Made by a program: the position numbers and the translations under genes. The notes below the pieces were generated by a model that searched no databases, was not told the origin of the DNA, and saw nothing but the letters and a program-made list of their open reading frames with translations. Shown piece by piece: positions 277 through 62,540 of a DNA stretch of 64,000 bases. The first letter of the stretch is position 1, and every line of letters begins with the position of its first letter. This DNA is from Octopus vulgaris (Eukaryota): NCBI GenBank assembly GCA_951406725.2, contig OX597823.1, forward strand, positions 93,310,001 through 93,374,000, in the 5' to 3' direction.

Positions 277-842
277 TGGCACTCTGTCATTCAGGACGAC
301 AATGGTTCCAGTTGATTCGAGCAACGGAATAGTTTGCTCGTGAAAATAAACGTGCAAGTGGCTGAGCATTCCACAGACACAAGTACCTGGAGGCAGACGA
401 AATACCTATTTCTTTACTACCCACAAGGGGCTAAACACAGAGGGGACAAACAAGGAGACACACGGATTAAGTCAATTATAACGACACCAGTGCGTAATTG
501 GTATTTATTTAATTGACCCTGGAAGAATGACAGGCAAAGTCGACCTCGGCGGAATTTGAACTCAGAACGTAGCAGCATACGAAATAACGCTAAGCATTTT
601 GCCCGGCATGCTAAAGTTTCTGCCAGCTCTCCACAGACACAAGTATCAGTAACTTAATTCTGAGGGAGATTAAGGCTCACATAGAATGTGACAAGGCTGG
701 GCCGTTTCAAATACAGACAGAAATCATTTTTGCCAGCTGAATGAAATAAAGTACCTCGCTCAAGGATAAAACCTGCTACCGTGAATCAATCACATGACTT
801 CACCATCGAAAGCCAAACTCATAACAATTAAGCTATGCACCT
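277..842 (-). mobile_element. tRNA-derived SINE family A (OR-like), old copy interrupted by a family M SINE at 386-629
   Basis: Shares 3' half (gctcgtgaaa..gtgcaagtggctgagca.tccacagacac..gtgacaaggctgg) with copies at 1395, 31661, 32264 and 32938. Confidence 0.8.
386..629 (-). mobile_element. tRNA-derived SINE family M (MetaSINE-like central domain) with 16-bp TSD
   Basis: Minus strand reads gagctggcagaaac..gagttcaaattccgccgaggtcgac..; flanked by the direct repeat tccacagacacaagta at 370-385 and 630-645. Confidence 0.9.
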
Positions 843-22530: not shown

Positions 22531-22859
22531 AGACATAAATATATATATATATATATGTTTGTATGTACATTTTTGTGTGCGATGTATATATAATTGTGTA
22601 TATAATGATTTTCAGCGGGAAAAAAACCTAGTTACCCGCAACAAAAAAAACTTCAACGCTTCACAGTACTATTTTGAGTTATATTATCAAATACTGCTGG
22701 ATTATATGACATAAAGAAAACTAAATTAGGTTTGGATTATATTTAGCGTAAAAAAAGTGTTGTTGAGTGAGATTCTGAAGAATGCTGATCGAGTTCATGA
22801 TTACGAAGTGGAGGATGATTCTAGTTATTAGCAGCATGCGGAGAACGCCGAATATTTTG

Positions 22860-23412
22860 GGGAAGTGGGTAGTCGATCCAAGTGTTCAACTAGTACTTTA
22901 TTTCCTGGGACCTGAAACGGTGAAATCTAAAGTTAACCTCGGCGAAATTTGAACTCAGAAATTAAAGACAGACGAAATGTCAGCTTGACGATTCAATAAC
23001 AATGACAATAATCTTATCTACGATAAGCACAAGGCCAGAAGTTTGTGGTGGAGGGGTCTAGTCCAATAAATCGACACCAGTGTTTCATTGATACTTCATT
23101 TATCGATCCAAAAAGGGCAAAGTCATCCTAGGTAAAGTCGACCTAGGCGGAATTTGAACTCAGAACGGCAGACGAAATACCTATTTCTTTACTACCCACA
23201 AGGGGCTAAACACAGAGAGGACAAACAAGGATAGACAAACAGATTAAGTCGATCATATCGACCTCGGTGCGTAACTGGTACTTATTTAATCGCCCCAGAA
23301 AGGATGAAAAGCAAAGTCGAACTCGGCGGAATTTGAACTCATGACGTAACGGCAGACGAAATACGGTTACGCATTTCGCCCGGCGTGCTAACGTTTCTGC
23401 CAGCTCGCCGCC
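22860..23412 (-). mobile_element. SINE family M cluster: two older bodies plus a young copy joined tail-to-body at 23180/23181
   Basis: Three occurrences of aaagt..acct.ggcg.aatttgaactc; head ends at 23412. Confidence 0.9.
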
Positions 23413-23470
23413 TTCAATAATAATAATAATAATATTAATAATAATAATAATAACAACAACAACAACAATG

Positions 23471-23547
<77 letters not shown>

Positions 23548-24124
23548 TCTGATAATGGAAACTATAGTGAGCTTCTAATATACATAGAGATAAGATGATT
23601 TTTTCTAGCTGCAGGCCGAATGCCTATGATGCGTATCAAGATTGAAATAAAAAAAAAACGGTAAGAAAAATTAGTGATAAAAAGCATAGATAAAAATACC
23701 TAGATAGTACAATAGAAAATGTCATAAAACGATAAGGTGAAGATAGATGGACAGCGGGGAAACGGTTGTATGACGGAATAATGAAATAGTTAAAAGGTAA
23801 ATGGAATGCAAAATTAAAAATAGAAGGAAAGGTCACGGATTTGATTCATAGCTAGGACAGGTGTGGTGTTTGTAATAAACGGGAGGTAGTATGAATCAAG
23901 TGCATCTATCAATGGAAGATGTTTGTAAAAGTGGAGATGAAACACAGGTGGAACACACAAAGCGTTTAACCCATATTTAAGCACTTCATTTAAATTCATT
24001 ATTCTTTCCTCGTCCTCATCTTCTTGTACTTCTTCTTCTCCTTCTTCTCCTCCTTCTTCTTCTTCTTCTCCTCCACCTCCGCCTCCTCCCCCTCCTCTTC
24101 TTCTTCTTCTTCTTCTTCGTTTTA

Positions 24125-24464
24125 TTATATCGACATCAGTGCGTAACTGGTACTTAATCGACCCCCAAAGGATGAAAGGCAAAGTCGACCTCGGCGGAAT
24201 TTGAACTCAGAACGTAGTGGCAGACGAAATACTTATTTCTTTATTACCCACAAGGGGCTAAACATAGAGGGGTTAAACAAGGACAGACATAGGTATTATG
24301 TCGATTACATCGACCCCAGTGCGTAACTGGTACTTAATTTATCGACCCCGAAAGGATGAAAGGTAAAGTCGACCTCGGCGGAATTTGAACTCAGAACGTA
24401 AAGACAGACGAAATACCGCGAAGCATTTCACTCGACGTGCTAACGTTTCTACCAGCTCACCGCC
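24125..24464 (-). mobile_element. SINE family M, head plus ~1.6 tandem units (junction 24232/24233)
   Basis: aaagtcgacctcggcggaatttgaactcagaacgta at 24181 and 24365. Confidence 0.92.
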
Positions 24465-24766
24465 TTTATGCTTCATATTATACAGTAAAATATTACAGAG
24501 GTGGTATGTAAATATATGTATGGAGTAGTTTCGGTAGGTTACAAATCCTTTGCAATATGGAACTGACATTTACATATACTGATCAATATGAAGAATTTTT
24601 TATGACTTTTATTTTATTTATTTATTGTTTTGGTATATCTTTTAGTATATTTCAGAGAACGTACTGAGATTCGTTTTGAGATTATTGATGGAAACATGCA
24701 TTCCTGAGATGCAAATTTATAAGCACAAACTTTACAAATACTTCTATCAGTGTATGTATGTATGTG

Positions 24767-38440: not shown

Positions 38441-39113
38441 TTTATTTCTTTATTGCCCACAAGGTGCTAAACATGGAGGGGACAAACAAGGACGGACAAA
38501 GGGTTTAAGTCAATTATATCGACCCCATTATATCGACAAAGGCGGCGAGCTGGCAGAAACGTTAGCACGCCGGGCGAAATGCGCAGCGGTATTTCGTCTG
38601 TAGTTACGTTGTGAGTTCAAATTCCGCCGTGGTCAACTTTGCCTTTCATCCTTTCGGGGTCGATAAATAAAGTGCCAGTTGCGCACTGGGGTCGAAGTAA
38701 TCGACTTAATCCGTTTGTCTGTCCTTGTTTGTTCCCTCTATGTTTAGCCCCTTGTGGGCAATAAAGAAATATATATCGAGCCCATTGCGTAACTAGTACT
38801 TAATCTATCTACCCCGAAAGAATGAAAGGCAAAGTCGACCTCGACGGAGCTTGAACTCAGAACGTAACTGTAGACGAAGTACCTATTTCTTTACTACCCA
38901 CAAGGGGCTAAACACAGAGGGGACAAACAAGGACAGACAAACGGATTAAGTCGATTATATCGACCCCAGTGCGTAACTGGTACTTATTTAATCGACCCCG
39001 AAAGGATGAAAGGCAAAGTCGACCTCGGCGGAATTTGAACTCAGACGAAGCGGCAGACGAAATACTGCTAAGCATTTCGCCCGGCGTGCTAACGTTTCTG
39101 CCAGCTCGCCACC
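38441..39113. mobile_element. Nested SINE family M: minus-strand head plus 2 units, with a plus-strand full copy (38541-38771) inside unit 2
   Basis: Tail 38441-38528 (-), full copy (+), body 38772-38882 (-), full copy 38883-39113 (-); tatatcga duplicated around the insert. Confidence 0.9.
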
Positions 39114-39956
39114 TTGGAAGAAAATGTATGTTGTTATATGTGTGTGTGAGTGCTTGCTTGTGAGTATGTGTATGTATGTGTGTAATTGTGTGTGTGTAGC
39201 AGCGACATGGGTTGAATTTTTTTTTTATTCAACTTGAAAATTCAGGCTTCTTGTTAAAGTAATATTTTTAATGAAGAAAAATATTTAAAGAGATGAAAAG
39301 TAGTTTTATGTTTTTGTCTGTAGATAAAAACAGAAGTGATATTTTTTCGATAATTTAAAAGAAAAAAACAGAACTGACGACATTGATATCCAAAACCATC
39401 TGGTTGTGTGTGTGTGTGTGTGTATGTGTTGGCGTGTGTGAATGTGTGTGTGTGTGTGTGTGTGTCTTTGTTTGTGAGTGTTTACGTATGCATGTATGTG
39501 TGCGTACGTGCGTGTATGTGTGTGTCTGCGCGTGTGCCTTTCTGTATAAGTATGTACATGTATACACATTTAGAGAGTGTGTGAGGGATATGTACGTATG
39601 TGTATGTTTATATGTATGTATGTATGTATATATATAAATATGTGTGTATGTATGTATATATATATATATATGTGTGTGTGTATGAGAGGGAGAAAGAGAG
39701 AGAAAAAAGAAACGATGCAAATAGATAGACAGATGGATAGATGAATAGATAAATAAATAGATAGATAGATAGATAAACAGATAGATAGATAGATAGATAG
39801 AGAGATAGATAGATATATATACACATATAAATAACCGCACATTCACAGACAGACACAGGCACAGACCCAGATGCGCACACATATACATATAGACACATAA
39901 ACACACACCATATACATACATATATAAATACATACACACACACACATATATATATA

Positions 39957-42772: not shown

Positions 42773-45700
42773 TTTTTTTTTTCTTCTTTCAAATTTGCTT
42801 CCAGTTCTTGCCGAGTGTCTTCCCGACTCCTAGGGCAAAGAAACTCATAGTATACATTGGAAGGCCATTAAACCAAACTCAATAGTTCGTTCATTTTTTT
42901 TTTTTTTTAAGTTAAATTAAAACACATGAGCAGCAACAGTTCTCACATCGACAATGCTCTCCTCAATACGTGTGATGTACCAGTTAAGACAATCTTTTGC
43001 ACTTCTTGCAGGGATGGTAAGCCAGGGATCATTCTCATATAATTTTCGGTTCCCTTCTTGATATCTGGTTTATTGGCCTTGATGGTTCGGTCTGTATGTA
43101 CTGGAAAGTCCCACAGAATGGTTACATTTTCTCCTTCAGTTACAGCCTCAGGGTGGTGATTATACCACTTGTCGGCAGTTTTGATATTGTAATGCCGACT
43201 TATTAGCCAGTGTAGATATTGGCCAACTCTGTCATGTCTTAATTTATACTCCACTGGTGCTAAGACTTTACATCCAGAGATTAGGTTGTCCACTGTTTCA
43301 ATCATGTCGTTGCAGAATCGGCATTTTGGGTCTGCTCCATTTTTCATCACATTGGCCTGGTAGTTCCGGGTTAATAGGCTTTGATCTTGAGCAGCCAGGA
43401 TGAAACCTTCGCTCTCTGCTTTTAGCTCTGAGCTCCGTAGCCACTGATGGGTTTGCTTCTGGTCAACATCAGCTTGTTTGCTGCGGGTCACATATTTGCC
43501 GTGCAGAGGTTTCTCCTCCCACCTATCAGCCAATTGCTCGTGCGCTTTTTTCGTTGCCATCATTTTCACCTTCTTTGCAACAATAGTTGCCGTACTTCCC
43601 TCGGGTTGTTCAGTTTGGGTATCCTGCACGAGATCAATAGCAATTTTTTTTTTTTTTTTGCTTTCCTTTATAATAGAATGAAGCTTCTTTCGTCTCTCGT
43701 GATTTTCCACGAGATTTAGCATCCAGTCATTCGATATTTCGAGATATTTGGCCAGTCCAATTGTGGTTGTTTTGTAAGCTAGTTCAAATTGGATCAGGCC
43801 TCGACCTCCTTGGGCTCTGGGAAGGTAAAGGCGATCTACGTCTGCCTTTGGGTGGTGCATCCTATTACAACTCAGCAGTTTGCGTATTTTCCTATCTATA
43901 TTCTTTACCTCACTCATATTCCAGTTCAACACATTGTAGCTATAAGTAACAACTGGAACTGCTAAGGAAGTTATAGCTAACACCTTGTTACGTGCATTTA
44001 GTTCAGATTTCAGGACTGCACGAACTCTCCTATAACATTCCTTCCTGATCTTCTCTTTCGTGCTTGCATGCTGAATACCAGAGCCTTCATTTATCCCTAA
44101 ATATTTGTATGTTTGTTCTTGCTCAAGCTCTCTTATGACCGTGTCAACATCTAACACGACTGAATTTGTGGTCTTCACTTTCCCTTTCTGGAAAGTGGCC
44201 TTGGCACACTTCTCAAGTCCAAACTCCATCCCGATGTCATCGCTGAATGCTTTCACGGTGCGCAATACGCCTTCAAGTTCATTATTGTCTTTACCATAAA
44301 GTTTTAAGTCATCCATATAAAATAGATGGCTAATTTTTTTATTGGTAATTTTATACCCATACCCTGTTCTGTTTAATTCACTTGTAAGGGGTATTAGGGC
44401 TATGCAGAATATTAAAGGTGAAAATGAGTCACCTTGAAAAATTCCACAGTTGATGTTTATATTTTCTGAGGCAAGTACTCCATTAGAGTGGTATAATTGG
44501 AGATCCGTATTCCACAACGACATATTGTGCTTCAGGAAGTTTGAAATCACAGGGGAAATTTTGAAGATGTCCAGCGATCTCAAGATCCATGGATGCGGTA
44601 TACAGTCGAAGGCCTTGTTATAGTCAATCCATGCGGTGCTGAGATTTCTGCGCTTGTTGTGACAGTTCTCAAGGATCATACGATTGATTAGCAGTTGATC
44701 TTTGCATCCGTAAGAGCCTCGGCGGCACCCTTTTTGTTCAATGGGGAAAATATCGTTCTTCTCCATGAATGCATTGTTTTCTCCGCCAGGATAGATGTTA
44801 GGATTTTATACGTGGCGGATAGACAGGTTATAGGCCGATAGTTTTTTGGAAGGTTGGTTTCGTTATTTTTTGGGAGTAGGTAAGTAATGCCACTTGCTAA
44901 CCATTCAGGTGTTTTCTTTGGGTCTCTCATAATTCCATTGAGCAGCTGAACTAGCTTACCGTGTGCGCATGGGAGCGATGCGAGCCAGAAATTCGGCACC
45001 CTATCTTTACCGGGGGATTTCCAATTATGGGCCTTCGTGAGTGCCTTTCTTAGGTCTGTTATTGTGATGTCTTCCCATGCTTGTTGTAAATTTTGGTAGG
45101 ATCCTTCAGTTTGTATAATCCAGTCTGCATTTATGTTGTACGTCTTCTTGTCACTCCAAATCCTTTTCCAAAAGTTTTGAACTTCTTCCATGGGAGGGGG
45201 GTCTTTAACGGTTACTTTCTCCTTCCCTATTTCTCTGTAGAATTTTTTGGCATTGGATGTGAACAGCTTATTTTGCTTGTAAAACTTGTTTCTCTTCTCA
45301 AATCTTCGTATTCTTTGGGCTTTTACTTGGACTTTTTGTTTCAGCGTTTCTTTTATTGATATCAGTTCTTCTCTTGGTGAGGATCCAAATTTTCTCTTCA
45401 TCTTTCTTCCTGTTCTGGATCTTACATCATTTCCACATATTAGTTCATTTAATATTGATATTTCCCCTCTCATAAATTCAATCTCTTTTTCAATTTTACT
45501 TCTCCAGGTTTGATTTCTTCCCAGGTTTTGTTTTCTTTGTTTTTTCGGGGGCATACAGCTGTTTTCAATTGCCCTAGCAGAAGCGTAAATAATTTCATTT
45601 AACTCAGTAAAATCAGGTTTTAATTCTCGTATTATTTCATTTGTTACATAGTTGCCAATTTGGATTTGTTTTTTATTTTGGTTTGTATTTGAGAGTTTAT

Positions 45701-46560
45701 GAAGTGGTTATCTATCATTCATACTTGTATTTCTTACAACTTCAAGCGTATTCAGGATTTTCTGCCTCATTTCTGCCATAGACTCTCTGTGTTTTTCAGC
45801 AAATGCGAGATCTTCAGTTACTGTTGTTTTTTCGTTTTCCTGGCTATCTTTAACAGGTACAATAGAATTTCTTGTATCTTCAGGCCTTTGCGTACTTTGG
45901 TCAGGTGGCAGTCTTTCAATTAAGCCTCGTGGCGGGCTATACTGTTCATCTGATTCTTCCTTTCCTTTGTGTCTTATATTTATGTCATTTTCCGTTGCGT
46001 GCTTGATCGCGCTTATTTCACTGTCTGTGAGTCTGTTATTTCTAAGGATATCCCTCCTCACATTTGCTAATTTGTTCTCGTCCAAATAGGGCCTACTGTC
46101 TTGATTCCGTGTTCTCCATATACTGTAAGAGTTTGCGGTGTGTCTCTCTTGAGATGGCCTACCTAATGCATAGTAATAAGCGTATATTACTTCTTTATAC
46201 TCTTCTCGGGTCCATTTGTTCCGCTTACATTTTTCTTTCTGTGGTGGTTGTGGTGGTGAACTTGGAGGGCTCGGGTTGGGGGATTTCCCGTTCAAGTGAC
46301 CATCCATGTCCGTATTCGGAGAAGAGTTTGTGCCAGTTGATGACTTTTCGATCCCAGGCTGGCTCTTCCCTGGGGGACGCGCTTCCAGATTAACCATAGG
46401 ACAAGCGATTTGGTATACTGATTTAGTTTTCCTTTTAGTTTCCAAAAACATTTTGGTGCTACGATAATGTTATCATTTTTTAGCTTTGATTGGCTCGTGG
46501 GGAGACGGCCATCATTGCCGTTACAATTATAATCGTACCATTATAGCAGCCGTAGTCGGC
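42771..46560 (-). mobile_element. Near full-length R4/Dong-clade non-LTR retrotransposon in a (TAA)n microsatellite
   Basis: Single-ORF architecture (N-terminal domain, RT, zinc knuckle, REL); 3' UTR 42771-42942 abuts (TAA)n; TAA-rich tract resumes beyond ~46560. Confidence 0.93.
42943..46451 (-). pseudogene. Dong RT-REL polyprotein (~1170 codons) with one nonsense codon, one 1-bp frameshift and an in-frame endonuclease deletion
   Basis: KWTREEYKEV N-terminus; TAA at 45708-45710 in frame with the 45554 ORF; KSPGKD, NYRPITCL; frameshift ~44775; GIFQGDSFSP, YMDDLKLY, CRFC..ETVDNLISGC, RHD, WDFPVHTD..NKPDI. Confidence 0.93.
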
Positions 46561-46884: not shown

Positions 46885-47232
46885 GGACATCGGTCCCAGT
46901 GCAAAACTGGTGCTTATTTATTTAATCTACCCTGAAAGGATGAAATGTAAAGTCGATCGGGGCAGAATTTGAACTCAGAACGTAGTAACGGGCGAAATAC
47001 ATATTTCTTTACTACCCACAAGGGGCTAAACACAGAGAGGACAAACAAGGACAGACAAACGGATTAAGTCGATTACATCGACCCCATTGCGTATCTGATA
47101 CTTAATTTATCGACTCTCAATGGATGAATGTCAAAGTCGACCTCGACGGAATTTGAACTCAGAACGTAACGGCAGACGAAATACGGCTACGCATTTCGCC
47201 CGGCGTTCTAACGTTCCTGCCAGCTCGCCGCC
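46885..47232 (-). mobile_element. SINE family M, head plus unit joined to a more diverged second body (junction 47000/47001)
   Basis: ggcgaaatac|atatttctttactacccacaagg. Confidence 0.9.
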
Positions 47233-47848
47233 TTTTTTTTCTGTTTGTGCTTCGTTATAAGGATTTCAAAAATCTTATCATATCAATACAATACTCATAC
47301 CATCAAAGGGTTTGTTAACCCAATCGTGCATTCTCTGTTATTGAACACATAACATTGAATATTTGCATTATATCGGAACGAAAACTTACTTTAGCATATC
47401 TGGTCTATTTTGTGCATAATTGAGATGATTTTACGCAATGTCATATATTTTACATCGTTACTAACACTGCTTTGTCTATTTTATTTAGTTTCCTTTATGT
47501 TTATAATATTTATATCTCATGCTATATCTTTTTTATCTCATTCTCCTATATCAGATTGTCTACCTCTGAATCTCTTTATTTTCTTGATATATATTCCTGT
47601 TTAATTTAATATTTATTTTATTTTATTCCATTTTTTACATTGTTGGCAATCAATTCAATTCTCAACAGTACTTCTTCCTGTTTTGTAATGTCTGCCTGCG
47701 TTGTGGGAAGATTAAATGTGACCATCTTTTATAATATTACAACTGATATGGAGACTGAAAATCAACAAAGTTTGAATATTATATAAGTATCATATATACA
47801 TGTGCATATGTGTATATTCTTGTATATACTTACTTACATACACACATA

Positions 47849-53746: not shown

Positions 53747-53785
53747 TATATATATATATATATTTCTTTACTACCCACAAGTGGC

Positions 53786-54622
53786 TTTCCTAGACTAGTT
53801 CTGTAATGTACCAAACAGGTGGCAGCACACGGTTGTGTGAGCACGTAGAGCTAATAGCAGTCTTCATGAGGCAGTGTACCGAGTGACATTGCTGTGTTTA
53901 CTTCACAAGTTGTGGATTTTTTGTTTTTGTGACCATGTGTTTGCTGCAGTCGGGACAGGAATTTGGAACAAAGATGAAGCTGAAGTTTTGTGTTTATATT
54001 GGGACCTCTGCAACAGAGGCATTGAGCACGCTCAAGCAAGCTTACGGTGACGAGGCAATGAATCGTAGTAGAAGCGATCTGGAAGACATGCTTCGAGCAT
54101 CAACCCCGGATATGTGTAGAAAATTCTTCAGCGTGTGGATGAGATTCGTCGGAAGAGCATCAAAAACACTGCTGATGTTGTTGATGTCATATCGGACGGT
54201 GCAGGCAATCCTAAAGTCTGAAATGAACACACAGCGTCTCTGCAAAGTTATTCCCCCGATTGCTGACCACTGAGTAGAAAGAATATGCCATCAAAATTTA
54301 TCAAGATCTCCGCAGATGACCCTTCCTTTATGTTCAGGTTCATCACAGATGACGAGAGTTGCGTCTACGGCTACGACCTTGAGACGAAGAAGCAGTCATC
54401 ACAATGGAATAACCCTTCATCTCCACGACCGAAGAAGGCGCGATTGAGTCGCAGTTCAATTAAGAGTTGCGTCTCGTTTTCCTATAACCGCGGTATCGTG
54501 CATCGAAGATCGCTATATTCCTGTGCAAGGCGACCATTTCGAAGAAGATGATGTTAAATCTTAGGTAAATAAGTTATTTTTTGTTAAGCATAACTAATTC
54601 GGGAACTTTTTGATACCAAATT
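53786..54622 (+). mobile_element. Mariner relic (irritans-like), internally deleted
   Basis: KFCVYIGTSATEAL..LKQAYGDEAM, FITDDESCVYGYDLETKKQSSQW..SPRPKKAR, C-terminal QGDHFE; terminal ttcgggaactttttgatacca. Confidence 0.85.
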
Positions 54623-60814: not shown

Positions 60815-61013
60815 ATAGACACAAGACCTGAAAATATGGGTGAAAAGAGTGATCGATCACATCGACCCCAGTTCATGAATTTTGGAAGAGGGAGCCTTGC
60901 AAGTCTATCAGATAGATAGAAGACATTGTAGAAAATGAAGTTAAGTATATTTCAGAATAAAAAAGAACATTGGCTATCTTCATTTTGAAAAATAATAGAA
61001 GTATAAAAAAACT

Positions 61014-62540
61014 GCCAAGCCAAGCAAGCCATAGCGCTGACTGTGTTGTCGTAGCCTTGGACATTCAGCCCTATGGCGCCCAGAGCTCTGATGATCCTCA
61101 GCCGCTTTGGTGGACATTCGATTTTTTGGAGCAAGATGAAGAGGCCTTTTCTACTTACCAAGTCAAAGGCCTTTGTCCGATCAATGAAAGCCATATATAA
61201 CGGCATTTTCTGCTCTCTGGACTTCTCCTGAAGTTGGCGTATGGAGAATATCATGTCAATAGTTGATCTGCTTCTTCTAAAGCCACAATGCGATTCTGGA
61301 TAAATTCGAGAAGCAAGCAGTTGTAGCCTGGACAGGATAATGTGAGCAAAGGCCTTTCCAACAGTGCTTAGAAGAGATATTCCACGGCAATTGTTACAAT
61401 CACCACGGTCACCTTTGTTTTTGTAAAGCGTTATGATGTTAGCATCCCGCATATCTTGAGGGACTGTATCCCCTTCCCAGCACTGACACCGAAGCTCATG
61501 AAGGTGCCGAAGCAGGCTGGTGTTTTTGCCGGTTTTGATGATCTCTAAGAGGATGCCCTCTTTCCCCGGAGCCTTGTTACTTGCTAGAGAGTCAATAGCC
61601 TTGGTGAGCTCTGCTATAGATGGCAGACTGTCAAGTTCATACGTGACTGGCAAGATCTTGACACCCTCGATTGCAGCCTCAACTACCGCGGTCTCCCGTG
61701 AGTACAGATCCTGGTAGTTCTCCACCCATGTATCCATTTGCTTGCTTTGGTCCTTGATGAGATCTCCAGTAGTTGATTTCAGAGGGGCTGACTTGGTTGC
61801 GGATGGACCGAGCGCCTTTTTCAAACTGGCATACATCCCACGGGTGTCGCCACTGTCAGCAGCTGACTTGATACTCTGACAGATTTCCTGCCAATACCTA
61901 TTTGCACAGCCTCTAGCAGTCAGTTGGGTTTTATTTCTTGCCTTTCTGAGTTCTTCGAGTGACACTGTAGAAGAATCCCTCTTGTGTTGCATCAGAGCTG
62001 TACTCTTTGCTTCGATAACTGTTTCCAGCTTTGAGAGCCCAGCACTGAACAAAATCTGGGTTTTGCCTTTCTTTCATGCCGAATGTATCGATTGATGTGG
62101 TATATAAAGCTTCCCTGATATAATTTCACCTACTTTCAGCAGAGGAGGTTGGGCAGCTACTGAGGGCAACCTTGATAGAAACAGCAAAACATTCTCGCAG
62201 TGTAGGGTCCGAGGTTCTGCCAGTGTTAATGCGTGGTCGGTCCATTTTCTTGGAGTGATGGACTTTTTTAGGCAGAATCCTCACCCTGCTTCTTATTAGT
62301 GAATGATGTTTGTCACAATCCACGCTGTGGAAACAACGGGTCAGTTGAACAGAATTCAGAAAGGATCTTTGTGTAATAATGAGATCCAGCTCATACCAGT
62401 GGTAAGATCTCGGATGTCCCCAAGAGGCTTTGTGCGATGTCTTGTTGGCAAAGAATGTCTTGGTGATGCACAGGTTATGGTATGTGCAAAATTCAAGTAG
62501 TCTCTGACCATTGTCATTCATGTTGCCAATACCAAAAGAC
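61014..62540 (-). mobile_element. RTE-clade LINE fragment (APE endonuclease C-terminus to RT N-half)
   Basis: NDNGQRLLEFC..SWGHPRS..LDLII..DKHHSLI; KAPGKEGI, IITLYKNKGDRGDCNNCRGISLL, PESHCGFRRSRSTIDMIF, FIDRTKAFDLV; RT similarity ends ~61085, before the YxDD motif. Confidence 0.92.

Follow-up and report, generated by a model that had tools for sequence, protein, structure and literature searches.

Tandem copies of a SINE in Octopus vulgaris probably arise when new copies insert at one position within older members of the family

Why would a short interspersed element (SINE) of Octopus vulgaris, having reached the end of its tail, resume at one particular base inside its own body and not at its head? 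The question is raised by a 64,000-nt stretch of octopus DNA (assembly GCA_951406725.2, contig OX597823.1, positions 93,310,001 to 93,374,000), hereafter the window, in which a first-pass annotation had reported the same tail-to-body junction at five places, involving five of eight such tails. All five junctions are indeed present, on the minus strand (398-415, 23173-23190, 24225-24242, 38875-38892 and 46993-47010), against a chance expectation of 0.02, and none of 100 shuffles yielded five or more. Five of the eight young tails in the window run on into a unit that begins at consensus position 49/50. We conclude that the junction mostly results from self-insertion into DNA, and neither from circular RNA nor from a single master dimer. 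The probable route is insertion at position 49 of older copies of the same family, with homology-driven loss of the extra head.

The consensus derived from genomic copies is 233 nt long and comprises a head (positions 1-48), a core (49 to about 165) and a tail, either of a young type, Y (to position 232), or of the older types O2 and O1. At 232 nt and in high copy number, the element has the size and abundance of a SINE, and target-site duplications of about 16 bp were found in 19 of 46 monomers, against a background of 0.7%. The head contains box-like motifs, read by eye, that may be A and B boxes; ARAGORN gave no genes and Rfam no tRNA match. The core may resemble the Deu/Nin domain; a motif search of the literature gave nothing relevant. 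Copies diverge by about 0.03 (Y), 0.07 (O2) and 0.11 (O1), suggesting ages of roughly 9, 20 and 30 million years on the scale in an excerpt of PMC13282606.

The first-pass annotation had suggested counting the junction genome-wide. Exact pattern matches over the 2.80-Gb genome (227 contigs) gave 32,034 junctions and 134,670 young-tail ends, with 0 and 4 matches for the corresponding reversed-sequence controls. An unselected sample of 800 kb, drawn at fixed coordinates, contains 66 Y tails, 25 of which run on into another unit; its 31 tail-to-SINE joins lie at position 49 (22), at position 16 (5) or elsewhere (4). Y-led elements in this sample consist of one unit in 33 cases, two in 15 and three in 5 (20 arrays in 53); the longest array, in the selected loci (genomic loci chosen for inspection, designated below by L-numbers), has seven. 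The second fixed junction, at consensus position 16, chiefly involves a C-A variant of the tail (2,399 exact matches; for example L108:8629-9007). End-to-49 junctions derive from Y tails in 278 of 278 cases and never from O tails, O units being always last.

Position 49 can be seen as a target in DNA at about 200 nested loci, which retain the head of the old copy, the new copy in full length and a duplication of 11-19 bp at position 49. A search for the head-duplication-head pattern matched 200 times; its counterpart at a control position matched 16 times, with a single array supplying 10 of these. In L113, a decayed head (1-61) leads into a fresh full copy and then into the decayed copy again from position 49, and the 13-bp duplication carries a change that is absent from the insert. 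Private changes common to both site copies and absent from the insert also occur in L184, L185, L199 and L201. The first 30 nested matches represent 29 distinct loci. The old copy is rejoined at 49-52 in 24 of them and at 16 in one; three end in another way, and one was not parsed. In L256, merely the last 10 nt of a tail lie between the two site copies, as in a truncated insertion. The last unit of L062:4811-5200 is pristine in its 5′ part and old in its 3′ part, resembling in-register priming deeper in an old copy. In L278 (minus strand, near its end), a single 14-bp duplication encloses a full Y copy together with head positions 2-64 and unrelated sequence of about 370 nt, which suggests a composite template.

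In the seamless arrays, in which a single head precedes several bodies, last units of the O2 type have the age of O2 monomers. The 48 O2 last units are star-like, with no clusters of private changes, and diverge by 359/5270 (0.068), as compared with 155/2076 (0.075) for O2 monomers and 196/6113 (0.032) for the first Y unit; position 220 was counted as divergence here and in the dimer comparison below, with small effect. Twenty-eight of the 48 were picked by the exact junction pattern, and the 20 unselected ones likewise gave 0.068. Because they are star-like and as old as monomers, each is an independent old copy and not the arm of a master dimer. The last unit is older than the first in 19 of 22 O2 arrays and 11 of 13 O1 arrays. 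The first-pass annotation had considered that unit 2 might always match unit 1 and descend from one dimeric master; the O last units are instead older and independent.

The single head of these arrays is mostly young. The Y-type G at position 44 was found in 16 of 54 O2 arrays and in none of 25 O2 monomers, and O-type bases at positions 62/64 in just 4 of 53 first units. Its 5′ part nevertheless retains an older component: over head positions 3-24, O-ending arrays gave 0.075 versus 0.055, where 0.110 would be expected of an old head (p=0.006). Positions 3-24 are thus about 36% old in O-ending arrays, whereas positions 37-61 are wholly young. A single outer duplication surrounds the array in about half of the arrays, and these duplications carry more mismatches in O-ending arrays (46/510) than in Y-only elements (43/734, p=0.044), with no difference from O monomers (34/302, p=0.33). 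In L062 a nearly pristine first unit (3/144 changes) is enclosed by a 19-bp duplication that contains five mismatches. These patterns suggest that complementary DNA (cDNA) base-pairs with the head of the old copy and takes the place of most of it, in the manner put forward for R2Bm (PMC6895275). Two other explanations of the join were rejected. A 5′ join that generally leaves positions 49-66 of the old copy in place within unit 1 is seen in a minority only (4/27 over positions 50-61, and 4/53). Were the sequence between two heads instead deleted later and uniformly, about 80% of positions 3-24 and 20% of positions 37-61 should be old, a poor fit to the observed 36% and 0%.

In the window, the arrays and other copies of the family are arranged as follows.

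23366..23413, minus strand: tRNA-like head of the young type, positions 1-48 (0/42 non-diagnostic changes)
23182..23365, minus strand: unit 1, positions 49-232, shared core and a Y tail matching a LINE 3′ end
23009..23181, minus strand: unit 2, older copy from position 49 with an O1 tail, the presumed target (divergence 0.18)
22848..22978, minus strand: separate decayed fragment of the same SINE family
24234..24465, minus strand: head and Y unit of a second array
24124..24233, minus strand: its unit 2, positions 49-162, up to a (TCT)n tract
407..632, minus strand: head and Y unit
392..406, minus strand: first 15 nt of a second unit; a perfect 16-nt duplication flanks the element as a whole
38884..39114, minus strand: young head and Y unit, 3 changes from consensus
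38772..38883, minus strand: unit 2, positions 49-160, an older Y copy
38540..38771, plus strand: full Y copy, an inverted insertion within that unit 2
38443..38527, minus strand: remainder of that unit 2, positions 148-232
47002..47233, minus strand: head and Y unit
46887..47001, minus strand: unit 2, positions 49-159, which stops close to a (TTA)n tract
53761..53786, minus strand: 5′-truncated Y tail, followed by (AT)n

The older tail that the first-pass annotation had read at 23010-23130 is that of the unit at 23009-23181. It had also described unit 2 as the more diverged at three junctions. Scored at non-diagnostic positions 50-160, this holds clearly at 38882 (12/102 versus 1/101); at 23180 (11/92 versus 9/102) and 47000 (11/98 versus 10/102) substitutions are similar, and the two units differ there by indels and subfamily sites. 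Unit 2 at 38882 is not truncated, since the inverted copy at 38540-38771 (plus strand) interrupts it and it resumes at 38527-38443. An Rfam match to MIR2646 corresponds to an inverted SINE pair and scores under the gathering threshold. Finally, the unit was said to start with GT and end with AG. AG|GT does occur at three of the five junctions; duplications in unique DNA, however, likewise open with GGTA, so that the first G belongs to the target, as its position 49, and the boundary falls at A|GGT. A splice or back-splice origin was therefore rejected.

What directs the element to position 49? Duplications in unique DNA fit a pyrimidine|RRTA(T) motif, with landing letters that are mostly AATAT for O2, GGTAT for the main Y variants and often AGAAA for the C-A variant; upstream of the nick these sites have nothing in common with the head except the pyrimidine. 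The sites used within the head are C|GGTATTT at position 49 and C|AGAAA at position 16, and GGTA stands next to the tail in 65,866 tails genome-wide. Tail variant and site are tightly coupled: the main variant gave 26,139 joins at 49 and 246 at 16, the C-A variant 591 and 2,399 (odds ratio about 430), and the two variants differ at two bases. The pattern of tail, GGTATTT and then A, G or T has 6,626 matches; among 30 inspected, 12 lie at places other than position 49. As 800 kb contain 176 such GGTATTT sites outside SINEs and 55 inside, we estimate a per-site preference of roughly 30-fold over GGTATTT in other DNA, which exceeds what a 7-mer accounts for. The consensus array has no T4 run, and two of nine partial-unit arrays (window 392-632 and L021) have a duplication, within which the partial second unit lies, so that templates appear to have extended beyond the junction; the 16-nt duplication outside the element at 392-632 in particular implies a template read past it. 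A read-through RNA with longer self-homology, reinforced by feedback, may thus account for the preference.

The Y tail has a 47-nt local match, at five loci, to the 3′ end of a long interspersed element (LINE) of the RT/zf-RVT type. Homologues of this LINE bear PF03372 (APE), PF00078 (RT) and PF13966 (zf-RVT); a close one comes from Argonauta, and the closest solved structure is L1 ORF2p (E 9e-69; R2, 5e-16). The LINE therefore appears L1/Tx1-like, its landing at microsatellites (four of five ends) being just consistent with Tx1, and its enzyme presumably mobilises the SINE. Within the window, LINE remnants with RT domains lie at 42946-46469 and 60955-62073 (both minus strand), the former ending in an A run and (AAT)n without a Y-like tail; downstream of 3883 in L173 (minus strand), a zf-RVT-type remnant adjoins an old SINE copy starting at about position 18.

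The main rival to this account, which we consider unlikely, retains self-insertion but leaves the choice of site solely to sequence-specific Tx1-type endonucleases, the tail variants reflecting different LINE partners. The estimated 30-fold preference over an identical 7-mer elsewhere would suit such an enzyme, and Tx1 families are known as target-specific (available part of PMC4494074). Against it, the five LINE ends with a Y-like tail adjoin microsatellites (four) or unique DNA (one) and none adjoins a SINE head. Three pattern searches for LINE-type tails at position 49 (3, 5 and 330 matches, all or mostly SINE-type) likewise revealed no excess, and no LINE insertion there for the tail types tested. 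Nor would a nuclease reading the head explain why unique-DNA sites match it upstream of the nick in the pyrimidine alone, or why tails differing by two bases use different sites. Less probable still is the formation of arrays in one event, the reverse transcriptase leaving a first SINE RNA at position 49 for the 3′ end of an RNA of the Y type. The single outer duplication of about half of the arrays and the mostly young head would follow naturally, and a head hairpin (window 39040-39114, minus strand, z -2.3) places its loop directly upstream of position 49; folding gave no support for a conserved tail hairpin (z 0.02). Such switching would, however, require thousands of different, decayed old copies as first templates, cannot produce the nested loci with their internal duplications, and predicts neither the old 5′ head nor the older outer duplications, nor is there an excess of 5′ ends at 46-53.

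An origin of the arrays from a small number of dimeric masters or from a circular RNA of 184 nt (the first-pass annotation had envisaged a circular or concatemeric RNA) seems very improbable, and is largely refuted as the main route. Retrozymes and other circular-RNA retroelements carry a self-cleaving ribozyme in the unit and tandem units that are identical at birth. No ribozyme was found by Rfam (E<=10) over the junction-spanning window 38600-39200, diagnostic sites are identical in only 1 of 24 Y-Y dimers (13 sites, one of them indexed on an invariant column, with small effect), and headless starts at 46-53 number 0 of 57 among Y-led elements in unselected DNA. The second junction at position 16 is equally unexpected, and Alu-like dimers, with fixed arms and common diagnostic changes, differ from these arrays, with their star-like last units, three age classes of last unit and one to seven units. 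On the other side, templates did pass the junction at window 392-632 and L021, where read-through RNA with part of a second unit must have existed, and five headless arrays overall begin at 49-52. The near-identity of inner units in long arrays (difference 0.064; 10 of 21 pairs identical) would also suit a master or circle. Because inner units are nearly identical, and some combine parts of last and first units (L078 and L098), arrays of three or more units likely grow mainly by unequal exchange or slippage in DNA, and the first-pass view that unequal crossover would not keep one exact junction fails for them. Other tandem forms of the family were noted: on contig C22, at least 23 junctions at about 186-bp spacing form a satellite-like array of the unit (G000:C22:10,031,044-10,035,334), and further arrays, at C22:20,052,857-20,053,637, C5:87,874,181-87,875,486 and C1:15,779,647-15,780,179, consist of head repeats (84-bp and 67-bp-multiple) and of a 101-bp repeat of old tail.

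Several results weigh against self-targeted insertion with head replacement. The site copies differ in about nine nested loci (for example L182, L187, L196, L198 and L209), and the visible nested class represents less than 1% of junctions, so the presumed replacement of the head would have to be very efficient. Where the last unit is also of type Y, it does not differ in age from the first (19 versus 16 of 42), and the two units of a Y-Y dimer resemble each other a little more than expected by chance at diagnostic sites (0.355 versus 0.416 shuffled, p=0.009). The duplications of O2-ending arrays alone (32/424) differ significantly neither from those of Y-only elements (p=0.27) nor from those of O2 monomers (17/159, p=0.24), a result that favours template switching. 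Every one of the 14 A-run-ended junctions sampled is a Y copy that has kept its join to position 49, an outcome that a site-specific nuclease, which may contribute to the choice of site, would give too. In these copies (L345-L358, 14 sampled of 67 matches) the last 9-12 tail letters are replaced by an A run of 7-16, which may have formed later in DNA; a poly(A)-tailed LINE at position 49 had been a candidate, and all 14 sampled proved to be SINEs. No pre-insertion allele was seen in relatives at the two loci compared. For window 22610-23415, contigs of four public runs were swamped by paralogues, the unique flank being covered by the closest other organism alone; at L062, flank contigs of another individual and of two relatives all lead into that head, with no empty or single-copy allele. 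The L062 insertion is, to judge from these contigs, common to those relatives, and neither relative comparison weighs for or against.

Self-targeted insertion would proceed as follows. The Y tail, which resembles the 3′ end of the L1/Tx1-like LINE, would allow the SINE to be mobilised by that LINE's enzyme, which would nick a broad motif while the inherited 3′ letters of the RNA select among nicks. In target-primed reverse transcription, the read-through letters behind the tail would pair with the nicked target, and head positions 49 and 16 do receive insertions. In a minority of cases, old head, full new copy and duplication all persist; in the majority, cDNA would pair with the homologous old head and replace most of it, leaving one head, two bodies and the old duplication outside. 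Transcripts of nested copies would run into the next unit and so acquire longer homology, favouring the same site again, and arrays of three or more units would arise chiefly by exchange or slippage in DNA. The first-pass suggestion of a 3′-extended RNA priming on existing copies accords with the nested duplications, the old last units and the coupling of tail and site. As a more tentative possibility, the SINE may possess a heritable, RNA-encoded guide, in which letters from the last site steer the next insertion, lineages that land in their own head lock on to it, and the decayed promoter heads of old copies are overwritten by fresh ones.

Several known systems share parts of this behaviour, in the excerpts of the reports cited. 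SINEU-3 of crocodilians inserts with Tx1-Mar at a fixed site in an abundant repeat, Mariner, and forms tandems by sequential insertion with an inferred Tx1-type partner (PMC4494074). There the tandems retain a duplication between full copies, whereas in the octopus the target is the element's own head, the extra head is mostly lost and the site follows the tail variant. In R2Bm, cDNA homologous to the upstream target displaces the original strand ('gap and flap') to give a seamless 5′ join, like that proposed here, and for R1Bm target letters on the RNA help first-strand synthesis (PMC6895275). R2 is, however, autonomous, with a restriction-like nuclease and a ribosomal DNA target, whereas the octopus SINE is non-autonomous and offers its whole head as homology. 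The TSD1-(SINE)n-TSD1 arrays of Scapharca broughtonii have one full head, head-truncated units, a complete last tail and one outer duplication (PMC11481361); their internal tails are truncated and recombination was proposed, in contrast to the complete tails, units of different subfamilies and nested intermediates of the octopus. Squamate SINE-derived satellites and Dip multimers are likewise tandem arrays of a SINE portion, homogenised when long (PMC10702118). Their founding dimer was ascribed to unequal recombination or chance co-insertion, whereas that of the octopus recurs at one base tens of thousands of times. A SINE that targets its own head with tail-coupled sites was not found in the literature searched; subscription papers, Repbase and supplements may contain one.

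These arrays connect dispersed SINEs to tandem repeats by a defined first step, on a large scale. Two tail variants with two sites constitute a ready test of RNA 3′ letters versus nuclease in site choice by a LINE enzyme, and the manner in which 5′ junctions form, an open question, may be approached through the age gradient that the genome preserves in the head. For the octopus genome itself, repeat annotation and dating blend old and young parts in one 'copy'. If the SINE does carry such an RNA-encoded guide, a LINE enzyme would have performed guide-directed insertion and replacement tens of thousands of times, and dead copies would have become active sources and seeds of satellites.
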